A stretch of 64,000 nucleotides of DNA, taken from NCBI GenBank assembly GCA_965230995.1, contig OZ246398.1, positions 400,213 through 464,212 on the forward strand. The letters run 5' to 3'. Source of the stretch: an uncultured Candidatus Saccharibacteria bacterium. Lineage in GTDB: Bacteria; Patescibacteriota; Minisyncoccia; Phycocordibacterales; G965230995. Under the pieces are notes generated by a model. It saw only the letters and a program-made list of their open reading frames with translations, ran no database searches and was not told the DNA's origin. A program made the position numbers and the translations under genes. Of this stretch, positions 22,589-62,799 are shown piece by piece (positions within the stretch are counted from its first letter, which is position 1; the number at the start of each line of letters is the position of its first letter).

Positions 22589-23150
22589 AATTTTTTAATT
22601 CTCAAATCTCTGGCACGCCCACATCCCTTGTATATTTTTTATTACCCGAACCCTTGAGCTCGGGCAGTGTGAGGTCGATTAACAAGATTGGATGTCGACC
22701 GTTATTGGGCGTGGCAGAGAGCTGGCAACAATCAAACAAAAAAGAGCTCGCGATTGATTACCACAAAAAGTGATAATTAATCGCAAGCTCTTAAACTTGG
22801 AATTCCTTTCAGGATGCCTCGTGAGGCATAACTCTATTTGATTGTTAATTGCATTATACTACTTTTCAAAAAACAGCACAATAGTTTTTTCTGTGCATAA
22901 TTTATTTACTCTCGAACGGGGATCATTTTACATAAAGCCCGCCACCAAGAGTAGAAACCTTTCGGTCTCAACGCACGAGTTTCCCCATACGACCATCCAA
23001 GGATCCCTGATGACGGGTTCTATATCTTGGATGGATTTTTTGCCATGCCTACCGCAGTGCGATAAGTTTAGGCGATTAAATTGTCACTTATTATTTTAAT
23101 ATAAAATGGGTAAAAACACCAGACCGAATTTATTTCCAGAAATGAAGAAG

Positions 23151-23211
23151 GGGTTATCCGCATTGCTGTGGATAACCCCTTTGGAATTTTGTAGCGACCG
23201 CCTTCGGCGGA
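23151..23211 (-). promoter_or_regulatory. Two GC-rich hairpins just 3' of the VR: ggggttatcc-N10-ggataacccc and ccgcc-ttc-ggcgg. Candidate DGR homing-enhancing hairpin/cruciform and IMH region.
   Basis: Perfect 10-bp and 5-bp stems within 100 bp downstream of the VR stop codon. Confidence 0.45.
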
Positions 23212-23271
23212 AATTCAAGGATCAAATGACAAGGAGTCAAAAGACCCAAGAATTCAAGCACTCAAGGATCA

Positions 23272-24156
23272 CTACTGCGAGACAAGACCGGAAGCCGAAC
23301 CGTAGCCGTCGTTGGCACCGTCGACCCAGTGCGCGACGAACCTGACCTTGCCGTCGTAGAACCCGAAGCACGGAGACCCCGAGAAGCCGCCACCGGCACC
23401 CGGTGCGAACTCGTCCCCGGCACAGTCGATCCAGAGATCGTCATAGTGCTGGAGTCGTTCCGGATGCGTCAGGATCATGATCCCGATGGCGAAAGCCCCG
23501 AGACCGAACTCGCTGGCGCTCATGACTTCGCGTGCCCGGCGAACCGAACGGCCCCTGTGACGGAGACCGAACTGAGCCGAAACGACGAGAATGTCGTGAT
23601 CCTTCTGCTCGTCGCCGAGCTTCTGGAACGCCTTGGCCGACTTCTGCGACTGACGGAGATACTGCGGACCGAGCTGGCCTTCACGGTAATTGTAGAACGC
23701 ACCGTTTCGGGTCTGCTTGATCAGGTCGAGCACCTTCTGCACGGCTTCGCCGTATGTCGGGGCGATCTTCTCCCACCTCGGAATGGCGAACCATCCTTCG
23801 GCGTTCGGGGGAAGATCCTGCTCGGCCAGCTTCTCATCGGCGTAGCCAATCCCGGGGAACAACTCGTGCAACCGGTTGGTCTGCTCGGTGATTCCTTTGG
23901 GCTTGTAGCCGGAGAGGTAGCCGTAGTTGGATTCCGTTTCCTCGTCTGCGAACTGATTGCTCACAGAGAGTTCACGGACGGCCGTCACGATCCTTGCTTG
24001 GAATTCGTCGCCGTTTTCGATGAGCTTCTGAAGCCCGTCCTTGTCGAGACCCGTTTCTTTGAGCGCACGCTCGGCGGCGTCCTCGACGAACCTGAAGTAC
24101 TGCTTTTTCTGTCCTTCGGTGATGCTGGTGTTGGTGATCGATGTTTTCATCGTCAT
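23272..24156 (-). CDS. DGR target (variable) protein. The VR occupies the C-terminal ~44 codons. GC-rich gene.
   Basis: The 3' terminal 131 bp (23275-23405) is the reverse complement of TR 24632-24762, with only A-to-N differences. Confidence 0.8.
   Translation of the reverse strand: MTMKTSITNTSITEGQKKQYFRFVEDAAERALKETGLDKDGLQKLIENGDEFQARIVTAVRELSVSNQFADEETESNYGYLSGYKPKGITEQTNRLHELFPGIGYADEKLAEQDLPPNAEGWFAIPRWEKIAPTYGEAVQKVLDLIKQTRNGAFYNYREGQLGPQYLRQSQKSAKAFQKLGDEQKDHDILVVSAQFGLRHRGRSVRRAREVMSASEFGLGAFAIGIMILTHPERLQHYDDLWIDCAGDEFAPGAGGGFSGSPCFGFYDGKVRFVAHWVDGANDGYGSASGLVSQ
23275..23405 (-). repeat. DGR variable repeat (VR)
   Basis: Aligns to the TR across ~131 bp. About 19 mismatches, all at TR adenines. 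Confidence 0.85.
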
Positions 24157-24631
24157 CCTCCTTCTTTTTTGAATTCCCAGAGTCGCTCTGGTCAGCGTCT
24201 TGCCTCTTTGTGAGGCGAGCGTGCTGGATACAAAAACCGCTTATATCCAATACGCCAACCTCACAAAATCGCTATATTTAGCCTTTTTGAAAGAACATTT
24301 AACTTCATGTCAGTATAGCAAATATCAACGGTTTTGTCAAGCGTTTTAATGCTACCTGATTTTAGGGTATAATAGCACTGAGTATAGGCTAATGCACGGC
24401 CGTTTAAGGATTGCCGGCGCCGAACTCTCTCATCAAGAGATAAACAACCGGAGTCTTGGGGATCACGGTTTCCAAGAGTGTGTTGCATTGAGGAGATACT
24501 GCTTGCTTTTGTTCAGAACGGGTTCCTTTGCTGGATACCGTCGAATCAAATTCAGGATTGAGAGCATATAGTTCCGTTGCCAACGGGAAGTAAAGCTCGA
24601 GGTCTGGTGACAAGGACGAACAAAAGCAAAA

Positions 24632-24762
24632 TTCCGGATGCCGATGGCGACTTCTCGAAGTCTCCGTACTTCAAGTTCAACGACGGCAAGGTCAAGTTCG
24701 ACACGAACTGGGTCGACAATGCCAACGACAACTACGGTTCGGCTTCCGGTCTTGTCTCGAAG
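24632..24762 (+). repeat. DGR template repeat (TR)
   Basis: Adenine-rich (AAC/AAG codons) counterpart of the VR. Same strand as the RT gene, 410 bp upstream of the RT start. Confidence 0.85.
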
Positions 24763-24808
24763 TCACTCCTCTTTTTAAGAAAGGGTACCCTCACGGGTAC
24801 CCTTTCTC

Positions 24809-25159
24809 TTACTCGGCTTTCACCGAGCGAATCCATCCTCCCAGCATTCTTCCGATTTCATCGATTACGCTTTCAAGTATCATATATTTTTTAGCGTCTA
24901 TCGTTTTTGTGTCCTTCATTAGTCGAATGAAGACTCTTAGCATGTTGAGCTTGAGGCTGGCCTTTTCAAGTGTTGGCAATTTTTCTTTTTTCTGCTCTCC
25001 ACTTGCTTTCATTATACTTTCCAAAACATCTAAAATCGCACACTCGGACTTTTCAAAAACCGTGAAGCGATCTTGTTTGGGAACGAGTTTGCGATACTCA
25101 TTGAATGTTTTGTATAAGTCATAGCTTTTCTTAAAAATAGGAATATCAAAGTCATTCAT
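24809..25159 (-). CDS. avd: Avd, the accessory variability determinant (four-helix-bundle family)
   Basis: 116 aa and basic. The C-terminus ...IDEIGRMLGGWIRSVK resembles the Avd/S23-IVS family ending. Lies between the TR and the RT. Confidence 0.7.
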   Translation of the reverse strand: MNDFDIPIFKKSYDLYKTFNEYRKLVPKQDRFTVFEKSECAILDVLESIMKASGEQKKEKLPTLEKASLKLNMLRVFIRLMKDTKTIDAKKYMILESVIDEIGRMLGGWIRSVKAE

Positions 25160-25171
25160 AGTTTTAATTTT

Positions 25172-26221
25172 ATGAGAGTTTATACTAATTTATTCGAGAA
25201 AATAATTTCAATCCCTAATATTTTTACTTCGTGGGAAGAATTCAAAAGCGACAAACGCAAGAAGGCGGATGTCCAAGAATTTGAATTTAACCTTGAGCCG
25301 AATTTGTTTGCTCTTTACCGTGATTTAAAGGGCAAAAGATATGTTCATTCTCCATACTCTGGATTTTATATTTATGATCCAAAGGTCAGGCATGTCCATA
25401 AGGCTTCAGTGCGTGATCGTATTTTGCATCATGCTATTTTTCGCATTCTTAATCCGCTTTACGACAAGACTTTTATAGCGAATTCGTTCTCATGCCGAAT
25501 AAACAAAGGAACGCATAAAGGAGTATTGGCTGTTGAGCGAATGATTCGAAGCGAAAGTCGAAATTTTACCAGACCGTGTTTTGCCTTAAAGTGTGATGTC
25601 AGAAAATTTTTTGACAGCATTGACCATCGCACCTTACTAAGCATTCTCGGTAAAAAAATAACAGATCAAGACACTATGTGGCTTTTGAACAGGGTTGTGG
25701 AAAGTTACTCGGCCAGTCAGACTAATTTATTCGATAGGCAGGGTTTACCCATAGGCAATTTAACCTCGCAACTTTTCGCGAATGTTTACATGAATGAATT
25801 TGATCAATTCGTGAAGCATAAACTTAAGGTTGTCAATTATGCTCGATACACCGACGACTTCGTTATTGTCTCGACCGACAGAGCGTATCTTGAAAATATC
25901 CTAGATCCAATCAAGGAGTTTTTGGATAAAAATTTACAATTGTCGCTCCATCCCAATAAGGTATCGATCCGGGCGTGTCATCAGGGCGTTGACTTCTTGG
26001 GATATGTCGCTTTCCCGTACCACCGTCTTGTAAGAGCAAGAACAAAACGGAGAATATTCCGCAAGATGAAAGAACGCATCGCCATGTTCAGAAGCGGAAC
26101 AATCAGCGAGGATGCTCTTTCGCAATCTTTGCGATCATATTTGGGTGTTCTTTCCCATGCCAACGCCCACCAACTTTCAGAAGGCCTTAAGAATCAGTAT
26201 TGGTTTTGGTTGCACGATTAA
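25172..26221 (+). CDS. DGR reverse transcriptase
   Basis: RT domain with catalytic YTDD and the DGR-specific motif GLPIGNLTSQLFANVY ([I/L]GxxxSQ). Confidence 0.9.
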   Translation: MRVYTNLFEKIISIPNIFTSWEEFKSDKRKKADVQEFEFNLEPNLFALYRDLKGKRYVHSPYSGFYIYDPKVRHVHKASVRDRILHHAIFRILNPLYDKTFIANSFSCRINKGTHKGVLAVERMIRSESRNFTRPCFALKCDVRKFFDSIDHRTLLSILGKKITDQDTMWLLNRVVESYSASQTNLFDRQGLPIGNLTSQLFANVYMNEFDQFVKHKLKVVNYARYTDDFVIVSTDRAYLENILDPIKEFLDKNLQLSLHPNKVSIRACHQGVDFLGYVAFPYHRLVRARTKRRIFRKMKERIAMFRSGTISEDALSQSLRSYLGVLSHANAHQLSEGLKNQYWFWLHD

Positions 26222-26416
26222 AAAACCCCGCAAACCATCCTTTGCGTATACAAACGCAAAAAGTCCTTTGCGAGGCTCTCTTGGATGGTTTTGCGACCAT
26301 GCCCTGATTCGGGTTTAGGCCTTATTCGGTTGTTTGCCTATTTTAGCAGGAAAAATCAATAATTGGCAGAATGTCTGTAAATATTGGCAATACTTGCCCA
26401 CAGTAGCTGGACTTGC

Positions 26417-26552: not shown

Positions 26553-27623
26553 ATGTCTATGGACAACATTTTTAACAAATTTGATCATCGAATAAAAAAT
26601 CTTGACCCACACATTGTGGCTATTTTGGCTGAGATTGACGGAATTCGAGGCGAATTTAAATCTGGCTTGCGAATGACTCCCCAGGCAATTACTAATCTCA
26701 AAAAATCTACACTGATCACTTCAGCCGGTGCTTCTACTCGTATTGAGGGTGCAAAGCTTACCGACGAAGAGGTGGAGAAAGTCATGAGAGGTCTTGCTAT
26801 CTCAAAGTTTGCTGATCGTGATTCTCAAGAGGTTCAGGGATATTTGGAAACACTCCAAAATGTTTTTGATAGTTATCAGGATTTACCACTTAGGGAAAGT
26901 TTGATCACCTCACTCCACAATCAGCTTCTTAAGTATTCGCACAAAGACGACACTCATCGTGGCAGTTACAAAAAGAAAGAGAATACTGTCGGAGTACTTG
27001 GACCGGATGGAAACATTGCAAAGATAATGTTTGAAACCACGCCGGCTTTTCTAACCGGCAAAGAGATGCAGGAACTTGTCGAATGGACAAATGATGCTTT
27101 TGAGAAGAATCGTTTCCACAATCTTTTAATTATCGCAAACTTTGTTGTTGAATTTTTGAAGATCCACCCATTTGAAGATGGTAATGGTCGTCTTTCTCGT
27201 GTTCTCACGAATCTTTTACTTTTGCGATCAGGTTATCAGTTCGTTCAGTATGTCTCACACGAGCAATTAGTTGAACATAGAAAAGACGAATATTATATTG
27301 CACTCCGTAAATCTCAAGAAACATTCAAAACCGACCACGATACAATTTCGCCATGGCTTAATTTCTTTTTATCAGTTATTAGAGAACAAGCCGTGAAGGC
27401 ACTATCGTATCTGGAAGAAGAAAAGATTGAGGACACTCTCTCTCCCAAGCAATATGAGGTATGGAAATATCTCACAGGTGTTGAACAGGCAGGACCGGGT
27501 GAGATTGTGAAGGAAACGAACATAGCACTCGGAACGGTACGCCAAGCACTCGACCGGTTGGTTGAACTTGGTAAGGTCAAGCGTGTCGGGCGTGGCCGAG
27601 GTACGAGGTATGTAAAAATATAA
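26553..27623 (+). CDS. Fic/Doc family protein (AMPylation-type) with a C-terminal winged-helix domain
   Basis: Canonical Fic motif HPFEDGNGRLSRVL. Confidence 0.85.
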   Translation: MSMDNIFNKFDHRIKNLDPHIVAILAEIDGIRGEFKSGLRMTPQAITNLKKSTLITSAGASTRIEGAKLTDEEVEKVMRGLAISKFADRDSQEVQGYLETLQNVFDSYQDLPLRESLITSLHNQLLKYSHKDDTHRGSYKKKENTVGVLGPDGNIAKIMFETTPAFLTGKEMQELVEWTNDAFEKNRFHNLLIIANFVVEFLKIHPFEDGNGRLSRVLTNLLLLRSGYQFVQYVSHEQLVEHRKDEYYIALRKSQETFKTDHDTISPWLNFFLSVIREQAVKALSYLEEEKIEDTLSPKQYEVWKYLTGVEQAGPGEIVKETNIALGTVRQALDRLVELGKVKRVGRGRGTRYVKI

Positions 27624-36691: not shown

Positions 36692-37414
36692 ATGTCATTT
36701 GGCTCATATCTAAAAAAACAGAGAGAAACCAACAAATGGACGGCCAAGGATATCGCTGATCGCCTTGGTTTTTCGGCCAGTTATGTCAGTCAGTTGGAAA
36801 ACGATGCCAGACTCCCTTCTCAGAAGCAGTTGGGGCTTTTGGCTAAGGCTTACGAGGTCGACGAGGACGAATTAAAAAAACAGTGGACCGAATCAAAGAT
36901 CCATAAGGTCAGCATTTCTACAAACTATAAATTCAACATCAAAGACGCTGGCGAGAAGCGTGTTGAAGAAATGACTCACAAACTGGAAGCAGGTTTGGAG
37001 GAATTAAAAAAGACGATCACAGCCGATGAAGTGGCACATTACAAAATGCCACTGTTCAATACCATTCCAGTGGAAGATCTCGATCTGCATCTCAAACATG
37101 CGGAGGAATTTATTTTTATTCCTAAGAACGGGATTGTTCGTGATCACCGTATATTCGGCATTCGTGTTTCCGATGTTCAATTTCCGGAGGCAGGTATAAT
37201 CGAAGGCGACCTGATTATGCTTGATGCGGACATTGAGGCAAGTGACGGAGACATTGTAGTGTTGTCTACGCCAGACGGTCTGGTCATGACTTACTTCAAA
37301 AAGCGTGGTGACTTTTTGGAGATTGCGACCAGCAATAAAGGTTTTCAAAAAAGTTATCCGGACAAGAGTGTCCGATTAATAGGTCGGCTAATTTATCACA
37401 TAAAAAAATACTAA
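36692..37414 (+). CDS. cI: CI-like repressor: N-terminal XRE HTH plus a C-terminal S24 (LexA-like) peptidase domain
   Basis: HTH WTAKDIADRLGFSASYVSQLE, and a C-terminal ...GIRVSDVQF...GIIEGDLIMLD...DGDIVVL... beta-barrel region. Confidence 0.6.
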   Translation: MSFGSYLKKQRETNKWTAKDIADRLGFSASYVSQLENDARLPSQKQLGLLAKAYEVDEDELKKQWTESKIHKVSISTNYKFNIKDAGEKRVEEMTHKLEAGLEELKKTITADEVAHYKMPLFNTIPVEDLDLHLKHAEEFIFIPKNGIVRDHRIFGIRVSDVQFPEAGIIEGDLIMLDADIEASDGDIVVLSTPDGLVMTYFKKRGDFLEIATSNKGFQKSYPDKSVRLIGRLIYHIKKY

Positions 37415-37459: not shown

Positions 37460-39166
37460 ATGAGTACAAATTATTTAATTTACGGCCGTGTTTCTACCTC
37501 TCGTCAGGCCGAACGAGAATTAAGTATTCCGGCACAGGTCAAAGCGTGCCAAAAGTATGGAATGGATCATCATTGGAATTTACTTCCCGATGGCATCTAC
37601 GAGGAAAAAGGCGAATCCGCAAGAACGACTGATCGTCCACAGCTCCAGAAAATGCTTCATCGAGCAAAGACGGACAGCAAGGTTGATGTCATCTTAGTCC
37701 ACAAGCTTGATCGTATGTGTCGCAATGTGGCTGATTACGCCGCCATTAAGATGATGCTTAAAAAGCACGATGCCAAACTCGTTTCAGTGGTTGAACAATT
37801 CGATGAGTCCTTTTCCGGTGAGCTGGTTGAGAACATCATGGCATCGATTGCTCAATGGACTTCACAAAACATCAGCTGGGAGGTCAGGAAGGGTCTTAAA
37901 GAGGCCGTAGAGCGTGGCAGGTTCCCGGGGTATGCACCAATTGGGTATACGAACGATAAAAAGACCAAGTCTCTTATTATTGATAATATTCGAGCCCCTT
38001 ATATAAAACTGGCTTTTGAACTTTACGCCACCGGCAAGTATTCATACGATTCTTTGTCTGCCGAACTTAATAAGCGGGGTCTAAAAAGTAAATCCGGCAA
38101 ACATGTTAATCGCAAATCAATTGAGCATTTTCTTTGCAATCCAATTTACTATGGTTTGATAAAAACTCGATCAGCTACTTGTCAGGCAAACTTTCCGCCT
38201 CTAATTTCTAAAAAACTTTTTGATGATGTTCAGGAGGTAGTCCAACAGCACAATCATTATGCAGACCGTACTCGCAAGCACTCGTATCCTATGGCAGGGT
38301 TTATGAGATGTGCTGTGTGTGGGTCTACGCTCTGCGGACAGATGCAAAAGGGTCATCTTTATTATTCTTGTACTCACTGGCAGGACAAAAACTGTACTGA
38401 ACGCAAATACATGCGATGGGAGGTTGTTGAGGAACAGGTTGCAAACCATTTATCACGGGTTCATTTACCTGATAAGTTTAAGAAGGTACTCGATTCATAT
38501 TTCCAATATTTTGCAAAAGAACGACTCGAACAGGAGGATAAAGAACGCAAGAGTCTCAAGCGTGAGCTTATAAGAGTTCAACAGCAGATTCGCAATATCG
38601 TTGTGGATCGTTCTCAGCGTATCATTGACGCCGATGTCTTTATAAAGATTCAGGACGAGCTTCTTAAGGAGAAGGAAATGTATCAGGATCGCTTGGGTGT
38701 ACTTGAGGGCAAATCTGATAAATTCGTGCAGAAATTTAATGAGTTACTGGACTTCACGGATCATGCCGACAAGGTGTTTAACACCAGCTCAATGCATCAA
38801 AAACGCACTCTGATGAAGCTTTGTTTTGAGGGGTTCACTGTCAGTAATCAAAAACTGACGCCGATATGGACGCCAGTCTTTGATGTTCTTATGGATTTGC
38901 AAGTTTCCAAACTCGAACCACCGAAACCGTCAAAGGGCTTGAAAACCCTTGCAGTTTCTAAGGTTCAAAGTTGGAAATCTGGCGGAAGAGGAGGGATTCG
39001 AACCCTCGATGGGCTTTCGCCCATACCAGTTTTCGAAACTGGGACATTCAGCCTCTCTGCCACTCTTCCGTATGTAGATAGCCTATCACTTTTTGCATTT
39101 TTTACAAAAAATGTTATATTATTCCAGTCGGTTTGGTGTCTACCAAATCCACGGCCTTATCGTTAA
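37460..39166 (+). CDS. Large serine recombinase (phage integrase)
   Basis: Catalytic motif IYGRVSTSRQ, a recombinase domain, and the zinc ribbon CAVCGSTLCGQ...YYSCTHW...C. 568 aa. Confidence 0.85.
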   Translation: MSTNYLIYGRVSTSRQAERELSIPAQVKACQKYGMDHHWNLLPDGIYEEKGESARTTDRPQLQKMLHRAKTDSKVDVILVHKLDRMCRNVADYAAIKMMLKKHDAKLVSVVEQFDESFSGELVENIMASIAQWTSQNISWEVRKGLKEAVERGRFPGYAPIGYTNDKKTKSLIIDNIRAPYIKLAFELYATGKYSYDSLSAELNKRGLKSKSGKHVNRKSIEHFLCNPIYYGLIKTRSATCQANFPPLISKKLFDDVQEVVQQHNHYADRTRKHSYPMAGFMRCAVCGSTLCGQMQKGHLYYSCTHWQDKNCTERKYMRWEVVEEQVANHLSRVHLPDKFKKVLDSYFQYFAKERLEQEDKERKSLKRELIRVQQQIRNIVVDRSQRIIDADVFIKIQDELLKEKEMYQDRLGVLEGKSDKFVQKFNELLDFTDHADKVFNTSSMHQKRTLMKLCFEGFTVSNQKLTPIWTPVFDVLMDLQVSKLEPPKPSKGLKTLAVSKVQSWKSGGRGGIRTLDGLSPIPVFETGTFSLSATLPYVDSLSLFAFFTKNVILFQSVWCLPNPRPYR

Positions 39167-60773: not shown

Positions 60774-61388
60774 TTATTGGCTGTTGTTTATAGGTTCAAC
60801 GATTTCGATCTTGATCTCTGCCCCGCTGGGCGAGAGACCCTTCACCCAGAGTAGCGTGAAGGTGCCTTTCGGTTTGTGTTTACCTTCCGTCTTTTCCTCG
60901 TCAACACCGAAGTTCTCGTACCATACGACTTCCTCGGAGACATGCTCCGAGATGAAATCGTTGACACGAATCAGGGCCCTACCCTTGTTAGAGTAAACCT
61001 TGAAGGGGCGTCCGTCGATGTCGAACGGCTCAGAGATCTCTCCTTGGGCTACCGTGACAGTTCTCGATGCGATAACTCTCACGTTCTCGGTGTCAACCTT
61101 ATTGGCAACCTTCGCCTGTACAGCGGTGTTGGTGGTACGAGGGCGCATGTCGTTCATCGCGCCGTTCGTGAACACTCCACTGCATGTTGAGATAAGGCAG
61201 ACGAGCGACAGCAACGCCAGGTACCACAGAATGCTGTGCGATGCCTTCGTGGTCCCCTTCGCAGAGGTAGCCGTTCCCGGAGTGGCTGATCCGCCAGTAC
61301 CCGAGCCCTTTTTCTTCTTGAAGAAGATCACAATCGCCGCTACCACAAACACTGCCAGAACCCCGATCATAACCTGTCTGACTTCCAT
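60774..61388 (-). CDS. GC-rich membrane protein. One TM helix, a Gly/Thr-rich linker, then a second TM helix.
   Basis: ORF with biased codon usage. Sits upstream of the SPFH gene on the same strand. Confidence 0.45.
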   Translation of the reverse strand: MEVRQVMIGVLAVFVVAAIVIFFKKKKGSGTGGSATPGTATSAKGTTKASHSILWYLALLSLVCLISTCSGVFTNGAMNDMRPRTTNTAVQAKVANKVDTENVRVIASRTVTVAQGEISEPFDIDGRPFKVYSNKGRALIRVNDFISEHVSEEVVWYENFGVDEEKTEGKHKPKGTFTLLWVKGLSPSGAEIKIEIVEPINNSQ

Positions 61389-61500
61389 AGAACTCCTCCT
61401 GTTTCCATATTATTATATCATACATACAGTTTATATGTCAAGTACGAAAAAGCGCCGGGGTTTAGCCGGCGCCGTGAATGGCAAGTGTCTGTCGGGGGTC

Positions 61501-62496
61501 CTAATCCCCGTCAGGAACTATCTTTCCACCCGGTGCGTACGTAATGTGAGTCGCATCGGAGAGCCCGATCATCGCTGCTGCAACGGTCTCCGGGTTCTTG
61601 AGCACTGCGTGGATGCGCTCCACCTGGCTCGCCTCAGCCTGTGCGATGCCTTGTGTCTCCTCAACCTTGGCCTCAGCCAAACCCTTGGCCTCCTTGACCC
61701 TGATCGCAGCAAGCTTATCCTCCTTTTCGATCTCTGGTCCTTGACGAACTCTCGCTGCATCTGCTTGTTGATGTGAAGCAGCAAGGTCGGTGAAGCTCTG
61801 ACGCAGAGCCTTCTCTGATGCCGAGTCGTCCCTCTTGGTAATTGTGGCATCAGTTACCTTTAGGGCGAAGCTAGAGTTGTTGAGAGACTGTTGAAGGCCA
61901 ACCTTTCCAGCTTCACTTACTGTTTCGACCTGGGCATCAGTCATTGACTTGACCAATATTTCCAGGTGGCTGGTAACACTTTCCTTCACCAAGAAGATGA
62001 TCTTTGCTTCAGCTTCAGGTTGGGGAAGAATATTGCCATCTGTTGTGAGCAAGTGCTGTTGGATGAAATCAATACAGGTTGGGTTTTCTGTATCGATTGA
62101 CACCATGACACGAAAGTCCAGGTCCTTCTGTCTGCGTGTATGGCTAGCTGTCAAACTGCCATCAGGGTTTAGGATGTTTATTTCAACATCCTTCTTCTGA
62201 CCCACTAAGGTGAAGACCAGTGGCAATGTTCCCTTGACCTTGAAACAAGGATTCAACCCGTACATGATACGAATTGGATTTGCCCAGTGCATCTTCGCCA
62301 CGTGACGGTGGTACATTCCCGGTAACACTATGCCCATAAAGGCTGTGTTTACGAGGGGGTTGTATACACCACGAGGTACATTGTTTACGAAGACAACACT
62401 GAGTGTCCCGCCGTTTACTTCATGATACGACGAGACAATCAGAAGGACGACAAACGCGATGGCAATGAGGATTCCGAGCGTGGTAGTGGTGAACAT
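61501..62496 (-). CDS. SPFH/band-7 (stomatin/flotillin-like) domain protein with a C-terminal Ala/Glu-rich coiled coil
   Basis: N-terminal TM helix, an SPFH-like core, and an AEAKVEETQGIAQAEASQVE helical tail. Confidence 0.65.
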   Translation of the reverse strand: MFTTTTLGILIAIAFVVLLIVSSYHEVNGGTLSVVFVNNVPRGVYNPLVNTAFMGIVLPGMYHRHVAKMHWANPIRIMYGLNPCFKVKGTLPLVFTLVGQKKDVEINILNPDGSLTASHTRRQKDLDFRVMVSIDTENPTCIDFIQQHLLTTDGNILPQPEAEAKIIFLVKESVTSHLEILVKSMTDAQVETVSEAGKVGLQQSLNNSSFALKVTDATITKRDDSASEKALRQSFTDLAASHQQADAARVRQGPEIEKEDKLAAIRVKEAKGLAEAKVEETQGIAQAEASQVERIHAVLKNPETVAAAMIGLSDATHITYAPGGKIVPDGD

Positions 62497-62712
62497 GGTA
62501 GCTCTCCTTGCGTTACGGTTGGCTTGTGTGTAGAACAGTTCAGGCTATATTATATTACATAATTGTGTAAAAGTCAAGCAAAAAGAGAGCTATAAATAAC
62601 GATATTTTTGCCATATTTATTTCCATTGTTTTTGTCGATTATTAATATTCCTCTTAAATTCTTTGTTTTTTTGCGTAAATATGATAAAGTTTTCTTTGTT
62701 GATTTTAAAAAT

Positions 62713-62785
62713 GCGCTCATAGCTCAGCTGGTAGAGCAGTCGCCTCTTAAGCGAACGGTCGTAGGTTCGATTCCTACTGGGCGCA
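62713..62785 (+). tRNA. tRNA-Lys (anticodon CUU)
   Basis: D-arm UAGCUCAGCUGGUAGAGCA, anticodon loop cuCUUaa, T-arm guaggTTCGAUUccuac, acceptor gcgctca/tgggcgc. Confidence 0.8.
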
Positions 62786-62799
62786 CATCGCAATAATAG

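Follow-up and report, generated by a model that had tools for sequence, protein, structure and literature searches.

Among described diversity-generating retroelements (DGRs), the closest counterparts of the locus analysed here are the element of the Bordetella phage BPP-1 and those of the candidate phyla radiation (CPR). In the BPP-1 RNA, the spacer downstream of the template repeat (TR) provides a primer strand that pairs with the TR 3' end, and a further strand, two nucleotides past the primer strand, pairs with sequence just upstream of the TR to give the "stop" duplex; the TR is looped out between these two adjacent duplexes, and a stem-loop that binds Avd lies just 3' of it (10.1101/2023.10.23.563531). 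The same position of the Avd-binding stem-loop after the TR has been reported for 207 DGRs (10.1101/2023.10.23.563531). In CPR genomes, the order TR-(avd)-reverse transcriptase (RT), with avd on the reverse strand, defines architecture B3, to which 90% of the CPR set belongs and which hardly occurs elsewhere, while essentially no information was available on the phage association of these elements (Wu et al. 2018, PMC5758913). The present locus lies in a 64,000-nucleotide stretch of DNA, hereafter the window, from an uncultured Candidatus Saccharibacteria bacterium (GenBank assembly GCA_965230995.1, contig OZ246398.1, positions 400,213 to 464,212 of the forward strand), and window coordinates are used throughout. 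It very likely represents an intact DGR of the candidate-phyla (Patescibacteria) lineage, carried inside an SU10-like prophage, arranged as a forward TR, a reverse avd and a forward RT gene, and operating by the mechanism set out below. The core of the element comprises the following parts.

24634 to 24763, + strand: template repeat (TR), with 30 adenines, none of them at third codon positions
23274 to 23403, - strand: variable repeat (VR), an ungapped 130-bp match to the TR, with cross-sample variation at A-coded codons only
23272 to 24156, - strand: target (variable protein) gene, 294 aa, with an N-terminal helical region followed by a predicted remote C-type-lectin-like domain
24809 to 25159, - strand: avd accessory gene, 116 aa (NF033474, PF22296 bAvd, phrog_3206)
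25172 to 26221, + strand: DGR reverse transcriptase gene, 349 aa (8ub7_A, the BPP-1 bRT; RVT_1; phrog_1423; IGNLTSQ and YTDD motifs)

The TR and VR were aligned by an ungapped scan for the best register, which placed TR 24634-24763 (+) against VR 23274-23403 (-) over 130 bp without gaps, the VR forming codons 252-294, the last 43, of the 294-codon target open reading frame. All 18 mismatches fall on TR adenines (14 A to G, 2 A to T and 2 A to C), and none of the 100 non-adenine TR positions differs from the VR, a distribution with a hypergeometric P of 1.7e-14. Of the 30 TR adenines, 18 therefore differ from the VR, and all 30 occupy codon position 1 or 2 of the VR frame, with none at position 3. 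By calculation, a TR of this composition allows approximately 7e16 DNA variants and 2e16 protein variants, and no second VR-like copy was found in the 64-kb window. A preliminary description of this DNA had aligned TR 24632-24762 with VR 23275-23405 over 131 gap-free bp, had counted about 19 mismatches, all at TR adenines and all ascribed to mutagenesis, and had proposed a computational TR/VR alignment as a check. That alignment, now performed, retains both the absence of gaps and the confinement of mismatches to TR adenines, while moving the coordinates by 1-2 bases, shortening the match to its true length of 130 bp and reducing the count to 18; the mutagenic interpretation holds for 17 of the 18 and fails for A24760, a fixed boundary difference considered below.

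The best solved-structure match of the RT is the BPP-1 DGR RT (8ub7_A, E 4.7e-47, residues 4-346), ahead of group II intron RTs, for which E is of the order of 1e-22 (3e-22). The protein also matches PHROG 1423 (E 2e-114) and Pfam RVT_1, its motif PIGNLTSQLFANVY aligns with PIGSLTSQLFANVY of BPP-1, YTDD is likewise present, and its scores lie far under the cutoffs of the NCBIfam models for group II intron, retron, Drt and Abi RTs. Judged from the BPP-1 match, the motifs and the gene context, its assignment to the DGR lineage is supported. The Avd protein reaches 83.5 bits against NF033474 (DivGenRetAVD, cutoff 80) and 62.4 bits against Pfam PF22296 bAvd (6e-17, cutoff 40), and avd and the RT gene stand head to head with start codons 12 nt apart. 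Two further proposals of the preliminary description, an RT marked as DGR-specific by IGNLTSQ and YTDD and an Avd-like gene between TR and RT on the opposite strand, are borne out by the full-length BPP-1 match and the above-cutoff NF033474 score, respectively. The original reading of a complete DGR is likewise supported, with TR, VR, Avd and RT all intact and the adenine-only pattern present here and in 33 related loci.

These related loci were obtained from a scan of one genome per species, which returned relatives in 198 species, of which 80 loci were fetched. A TR within 6 kb, differing from its VR almost only at adenines, was found in 34 of them; in the 26 non-redundant loci, 446 adenines are substituted (61% to G, 24% to T, 15% to C), 329 are unchanged, and 17 mismatches involve other bases. 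The core of forward TR, reverse avd and forward RT is common to all complete cassettes, and in the window it runs from the TR (24634-24763, +) through avd (24809-25159, -) to the RT gene (25172-26221, +). Because it shares this TR-(avd)-RT order, the window element is a member of the B3 group already described in candidate phyla. The target lies upstream on the same strand in the majority of related cassettes; 10 of about 35 complete loci have it inverted, like the window (L001/L005, L007, L016, L019, L031, L039, L043, L046 and L051). Neither a TR nor an RT or Avd lies within 6 kb of the target homologue in about 40 loci, roughly half of those in species genomes (L006, L008, L010-L012, L014, L021-L023, L032, L033, L035 and about 30 more); most of these retain a VR-like, diversified-looking C-terminus, the CGCAGTA end and the CTTG repeats described below, and such targets may be served in trans or may be remnants left after DGR loss. 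In five loci (L002-L004, L009 and L034), the RT has been lost while the target, the TR and an Avd fragment are kept, and in a few loci the target, TR and Avd fragment sit amid housekeeping genes.

Diversification of the target was assessed across proteins from different samples, using the 13 full-length members of the 26-member, 90%-identity cluster to which the window target belongs. Mean entropy reaches 1.69 bits at the 20 VR codons with a TR adenine at position 1 or 2, compared with 0.03 bits at the 23 VR codons without one (Mann-Whitney p 7e-9) and 0.09 bits over the nearly invariant residues 5-251. Variation among these 13 near-identical proteins is restricted to 19 codons encoded with a TR adenine at position 1 or 2, and residue 294 is an invariant glutamine in the cluster. 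The preliminary description expected the last ~44 residues of the target to be hypervaried, at Asn/Lys/Asp codons, and proposed a search for polymorphism restricted to TR-adenine positions; the cross-sample entropy shows this restriction, with the VR comprising the last 43 codons, and the DGR is very probably active in its lineage.

The boundary between TR and VR, together with the sequence beyond the VR, contains several features that may define the recipient site.

23278 to 23301, - strand: A-free, GC-rich VR 3' segment GGTTCGGCTTCCGGTCTTGTCTCG, identical in TR 24736-24759, a candidate pair of initiation of mutagenic homing (IMH) and IMH* sequences
23212 to 23268, - strand: CTTG(A/G) repeat tract directly 3' of the target stop codon, a candidate recipient-site element kept beside VRs and absent beside TRs
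23198 to 23210, - strand: small GC hairpin CCGCC-GAA-GGCGG, conserved solely in the window-type sublineage
23147 to 23182, - strand: large hairpin with a T-rich run after it, its position conserved among loci and its stem showing compensatory changes between them

In the VR the 24-nt A-free segment runs into CAGT, in the TR into AAGT, and together with this difference it would form an IMH/IMH*-like boundary. The 3'-most mismatch, TR A24760 against VR C (the complement of 23277), recurs as a fixed TR/VR difference in 32 of 34 loci, where the TR reads ...CGAAGT and the VR ...CGCAG or CGCAA. Since it is fixed in these loci and residue 294 is an invariant Gln, this mismatch is not mutagenic, leaving 17 of the 18 as mutagenic. 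CTTG occurs 3.1 times per 75 nt in the tract against a background of 0.37, at least three copies are found in 47 of 78 loci, and the tract is also present at targets without a DGR within 6 kb. A GC-rich hairpin or cruciform 3' of the IMH is needed in the BPP-1 and Legionella DGRs. Across DGRs, such a structure downstream of the IMH occurs in only 34% (PMC5758913). Two GC-rich hairpins had previously been placed just 3' of the VR, at the expected IMH position; both exist, but they lie 62-125 nt beyond the VR end, where the larger looks like the terminator of the target gene, and the CTTG tract is what adjoins the VR instead. As a separate observation, the conserved hairpin after the target gene (window 23150-23179, -) carries a DnaA-box-like TTATCCACA in its stem at many loci, including the window, L001, L015, L039, L048, L059 and L064.

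Upstream of the TR, a -10 box and, 3' of it, a strongly conserved stretch of about 250 nt are common to all TR loci, and after the TR a stem-loop with a tetraloop precedes the avd stop codon. The elements of the corresponding RNA in the window are as follows.

24369 to 24374, + strand: conserved -10 box TATAAT of the TR-containing RNA (TATA.T kept in the alignment)
24379 to 24633, + strand: structured 5' leader of the DGR RNA (alignment, RNAalifold)
24394 to 24420, + strand: leader helix P1
24445 to 24485, + strand: leader helix P2
24492 to 24502, + strand: proposed primer strand
24503 to 24514 with 24618 to 24629, + strand: leader helix P3
24518 to 24541, + strand: leader helix P4
24555 to 24605, + strand: leader helix P5
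24759 to 24769, + strand: TR 3' end and tail GAAGTCACTCC, including the fixed A24760, with proposed pairing to leader 24492-24502
24778 to 24807, + strand: stem-loop directly 3' of the TR, 11-13 bp, tetraloop TCAC, with all 10 pairs covarying

A consensus RNA structure was derived with RNAalifold from the alignment of 26 loci. The 79 pairs retained, including the 3' stem-loop, are formed in 92% of alignment cells, compared with 41-51% when the partners are slid, and 60 of the 79 show compensatory changes on both sides, with 0 of 500 shuffles reaching any of the observed measures. Predicted pairs within the TR (columns 439-445/465-471) and between columns 45-47 and 429-431 showed no compensatory change and were dropped. 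Helix P3 (12 bp, of which 9 covary; pairing in 99% of cells) stops 4 nt short of the TR. An 18-base leader pattern matched at least 120 metagenomic contigs; among the 45 non-redundant true leaders recovered from metagenomes, 44 are accompanied by a target homologue, 38 by an Avd and 32 by an RT. No family in Rfam 15, the RT-1 to RT-19 motifs included, matches the strand of the TR-containing RNA, and no description of the structured leader RNA, the fixed boundary A or the CTTG repeats was found in the DGR literature searched.

The leader strand GGAGATACTGC (24492-24502), directly 5' of the P3 strand, shows complementarity to G[A]AGTCACTCC (24759-24769), which comprises the 3' end of the TR and its tail. 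This helix is paired in 78% of cells, compared with 34-66% when slid, and contains 2 covarying pairs. Compensatory changes have arisen in separate lineages, namely G-C to A-U, A-U to G-C, C-G to U-A (L118/L147) and G.A to C-G (L041), and in L041 the TR and VR are also identical at the base involved in the G.A to C-G change. Moreover, leader/tail duplexes have greater stability when cognate than when non-cognate (-11.1 versus -10.3 kcal/mol), a difference reached in 0 of 2000 permutations. By analogy with BPP-1, it is conceivable, if somewhat short of an even chance, that the DGR RNA is a self-contained circular permutation, about 440 nt long, of the BPP-1 DGR RNA, with the primer and stop strands upstream of the TR. 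In such an RNA, A24760 would form an A.G mismatch opposite G24501 in the template:primer helix and would mark where copying begins; it would never reach the VR because it would lie 3' of the presumed copying start. The RNA likely ends with the stem-loop after the TR, itself the likely counterpart of the Avd-binding stem-loop.

Taken as a whole, the proposed mechanism would begin with a promoter, including the -10 box at 24369-24374, that drives a separate RNA of about 440 nt composed of a 250-nt structured leader, the 130-nt TR and a terminal stem-loop. The complex of RT and Avd would bind this RNA and copy the TR into cDNA, misincorporating opposite adenines, and the cDNA would then take the place of the VR at the target gene's 3' end. 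Transfer would owe its direction to the A-free GC-rich segment, to the VR having CAGT where the TR has AAGT, and to the CTTG repeats and hairpin found on the VR side only. As an outcome, a small C-type-lectin-like protein, apparently without a signal peptide, would have as many as about 2e16 versions of its binding face. More tentatively, pairing of 24492-24502 with the TR 3' end and of 24503-24514 with 24618-24629 would loop the TR out of a quasi-continuous helix, as in the BPP-1 ribonucleoprotein (RNP).

Several observations weigh against parts of this picture. Diversification is seen across proteins from other samples rather than in reads of the source sample, which limits any claim of activity for this genome's own copy. 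The window VR represents a single snapshot, in which 14 of 18 changes are A to G, resembling the family-wide 61%, and this bias could reflect selection as well as RT bias. No equivalent of the BPP-1-like hairpin directly beside the VR exists at this locus. The leader/TR-end helix has few covarying pairs, its strands being nearly invariant, and RNAalifold does not predict it, while the permutation test of leader and tail ignores kinship among the loci.

The strongest competing explanation concerns the RNA alone and supposes a BPP-1-like DGR RNA that uses a downstream spacer, here antisense to avd, with a leader unrelated to priming, for example a regulatory RNA or a 5' untranslated region. It is a credible though unlikely alternative: the stem-loop after the TR occupies the position of the Avd-binding stem-loop of 207 DGRs, and covariation in the leader/TR-end helix is limited. 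However, the sequence past the stem-loop is antisense avd, where conservation, judged by eye, is codon-like rather than helical; the leader stands beside a target homologue in 44 of 45 loci; P3, with 9 of its 12 bp covarying, stops 4 nt short of the TR, exactly at the place of the BPP-1 stop duplex; and cognate leader/tail pairs are stabler than non-cognate ones.

A second alternative, which we consider improbable, accepts that the DGR was once active and regards it as a silent relic in this genome, with TR/VR differences that record old events only. A single sequence of the window locus is consistent with this, as are the loci that lost the RT and kept the target, TR and Avd fragment (L002-L004, L009, L034), and the absence of a DGR within 6 kb of about half the target homologues from species genomes. 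In the window, however, RT, Avd and TR are intact, as are the leader helices and the promoters, every TR adenine is still at codon position 1 or 2, and non-adenine mismatches, which a dead pair would accumulate, are absent; close relatives, furthermore, differ at A-coded codons only. That the RT belongs to another class (group II intron, retron or defence RT) and the TR/VR pair is an ordinary partial gene duplication is very improbable, since the best NCBIfam models, group II intron RT/maturase (147.9 bits) and Drt3a (88 bits), fall far under their respective cutoffs (300 and 200), BPP-1 bRT leads the solved structures by 25 orders of magnitude, an Avd that exceeds its curated cutoff stands head to head with the RT, Rfam gave no intron or retron RNA family, and duplication does not yield an adenine-only pattern (P 2e-14) repeated in 33 other loci. 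An intact DGR of the candidate-phyla lineage accordingly remains the preferred explanation of the locus.

The 294-aa target protein has no sequence match in Pfam, NCBIfam, PHROG or the Protein Data Bank (PDB), the Pfam domains FGE-sulfatase and DUF1566 included. Its family is very large, with 3404 matches among 90%-identity clusters and 1776 among 50% clusters; the best 120 matches in the 90% clusters share 70-92% identity, the few named sources are almost all metagenome-assembled genomes of Patescibacteria, and every protein is labelled "hypothetical". A confident structure model suggests a remote C-type-lectin fold, a resemblance that Foldseek did not recover, and from this model we read the target as a remote lectin-like fold with the VR within its C-terminal strands. 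Inspection by eye revealed neither a signal peptide nor a hydrophobic N-terminus. Target homologues also occur in ordinary chromosomal (non-phage) contexts, and because of this distribution and a position outside the structural module of the prophage, the target is probably not a tail fibre. Expression of the gene may depend on an upstream site.

24312 to 24340, - strand: promoter-like site of the target gene, TTGACA, 17 nt, TATACT, with TG, 11 of 12 consensus matches

The target gene also forms a GC-rich island, with 58% GC against 43% in its flanks, in 79 of 81 family loci, and its GC content at third codon positions is 74%, compared with 42-45% for the RT and Avd genes of the same cassettes, whether or not a DGR is nearby. 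Adenine avoidance was rejected as the cause of this richness, as adenine and thymine are both depleted at third positions.

The window contains an SU10-like prophage (1581-39308) in a Patescibacteria-type chromosome. Its genes encode a beta-helix tail protein and SU10-type adaptor, capsid and portal proteins, followed by a ParB-like protein and a Dam methylase up to 22588, after which the DGR begins. On the 3' side of the DGR lie genes for Fic, RadC, a Dcm/R.HinP1I restriction-modification pair, an Abi-like protein (Hypoth_Ymh), an SMC-like ATPase and a PD-(D/E)XK nuclease. Other prophage genes are listed here.

1581 to 2150: amidase, a phage gene
18744 to 20390: candidate terminase, without a Pfam match
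36692 to 37414: CI-like repressor
37460 to 39166: serine integrase, adjoining tRNA-Ser and tRNA-Glu

FtsZ and GyrA are encoded beyond the integrase and tRNA region. A comparison of the tRNA region with the rest of the window for prophage att repeats found nothing longer than 14 nt, and the left prophage end probably lies outside the window. Related prophages carrying the same cassette (L001, L019, L162 and L164) share 87-92% DNA identity.

The cassette is also flanked by sequences related to the LOOT RNA (Rfam RF03000). A full-length LOOT RNA at 22954-23074 (-) scores 76.5 bits against a gathering score of 46.4 and lies about 200 nt 3' of the DGR target stop codon on the same strand, a position kept in 5 of 7 other window-type loci tested. 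Further copies were located in L001 (9066-9185), L007 (3618-3738 and 4295-4412), L031 (7047-7175), L039 (5639-5762) and L051 (7044-7168), and LOOT also occurs near the family loci L015, L027, L048, L034 and L032. Directly after the RT stop codon, at 26242-26321 (-), stands a degenerate LOOT 5' half (GGCATGG..AAAACCATCCAAGA; Rfam E 0.86), so that LOOT-like sequence is found on both sides of the cassette in the same orientation; these flanking copies may be a trace of cassette insertion.

Additional observations were made elsewhere in the window. Just upstream of the Fic-domain gene (26553-27623), the segment 26413-26536 (+) contains two 54-nt copies, 83% identical and 70 nt apart, each with TTTACCGCTGTAATCCGTTATAAT, which may be duplicated promoter or operator sequence; Tandem Repeats Finder did not report this 70-bp duplication, which another repeat search found. 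A second GC-rich patch at 61000-62500 (53.5% versus about 38%) adjoins tRNA-Lys (62713-62786), and its candidacy as a second target was rejected, as its open reading frames have no similarity to the target and no Pfam match. In the 500-nt intergenic stretch between the Dam methylase and LOOT, a sub-threshold Rfam match to ciliate telomerase RNA at 22734-22875 (-; 27.9 bits, E 0.16) is almost certainly spurious, although the stretch may be structured.

As one more DGR in a class known to be abundant in Patescibacteria, the element changes little by itself. Its location matters more, as a candidate-phyla-type DGR in a recognisable prophage offers a concrete route by which cassettes and their conserved target family could move between ultra-small bacteria. 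The 34 genomic TR loci and 45 metagenomic loci define a strongly covarying RNA around the TR, and the way this RNA is organised is the single respect in which novelty may lie. Should the proposed helices prove correct, the topology of the BPP-1 RNP would be conserved while being built from a differently ordered RNA, cDNA priming would be explained in DGRs with antisense avd and no TR-RT spacer, and a defined RNA would be available for in vitro reconstitution of a second, distant DGR. The orphan LOOT RNA motif, in addition, gains an organismal and genomic context.

Compared with the CPR DGRs (architecture B3, PMC5758913; clade 2 of Roux et al. 2021, PMC8144416), the window element shares the core order, the antisense avd, the Patescibacteria hosts, a VR at the C-terminus and a target without a recognisable domain or membrane segment. 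It differs in residing in a clearly identifiable prophage and in a target that runs opposite to the TR, an orientation seen in 10 of about 35 complete related loci. With the lectin-fold variable proteins (Mtd 1yu0, TvpA 2y3c, TaqVP 5vf4 and the archaeal AvpA), the target has no detectable sequence similarity, and its VR motif, FSxSPxFxFxDGxVxFxxxWVxxAxxxYGSASGLVSQ, is unlike the GGxWxN...R type of lectin-fold DGR proteins.

The BPP-1 DGR (mtd, avd, TR, brt) shows differences of several kinds. Its target is a tail-fibre protein, whereas that of the window is a 294-aa protein whose family also occurs in ordinary chromosomal contexts; its Rfam RT-10 motif is not matched by the window; and its hairpin abuts the IMH, whereas the nearest window hairpin is 62 nt away. 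The two systems nevertheless share a homologous RT (E 4.7e-47, motif IGxLTSQLFANVY), a homologous Avd, adenine-specific mutagenesis, a VR at the 3' end of a gene for a protein with a lectin fold (predicted in the window), an A-free GC-rich 3' segment common to TR and VR, and a stem-loop directly after the TR. In BPP-1, avd, TR and brt lie on one strand and a 140-nt TR-brt spacer supplies the primer and stop strands; in the window, avd is antisense, this spacer is absent and what seem to be the equivalent strands are found about 130 nt upstream of the TR. In both, the TR would be flanked by two adjacent duplexes, solved in BPP-1 and proposed here.

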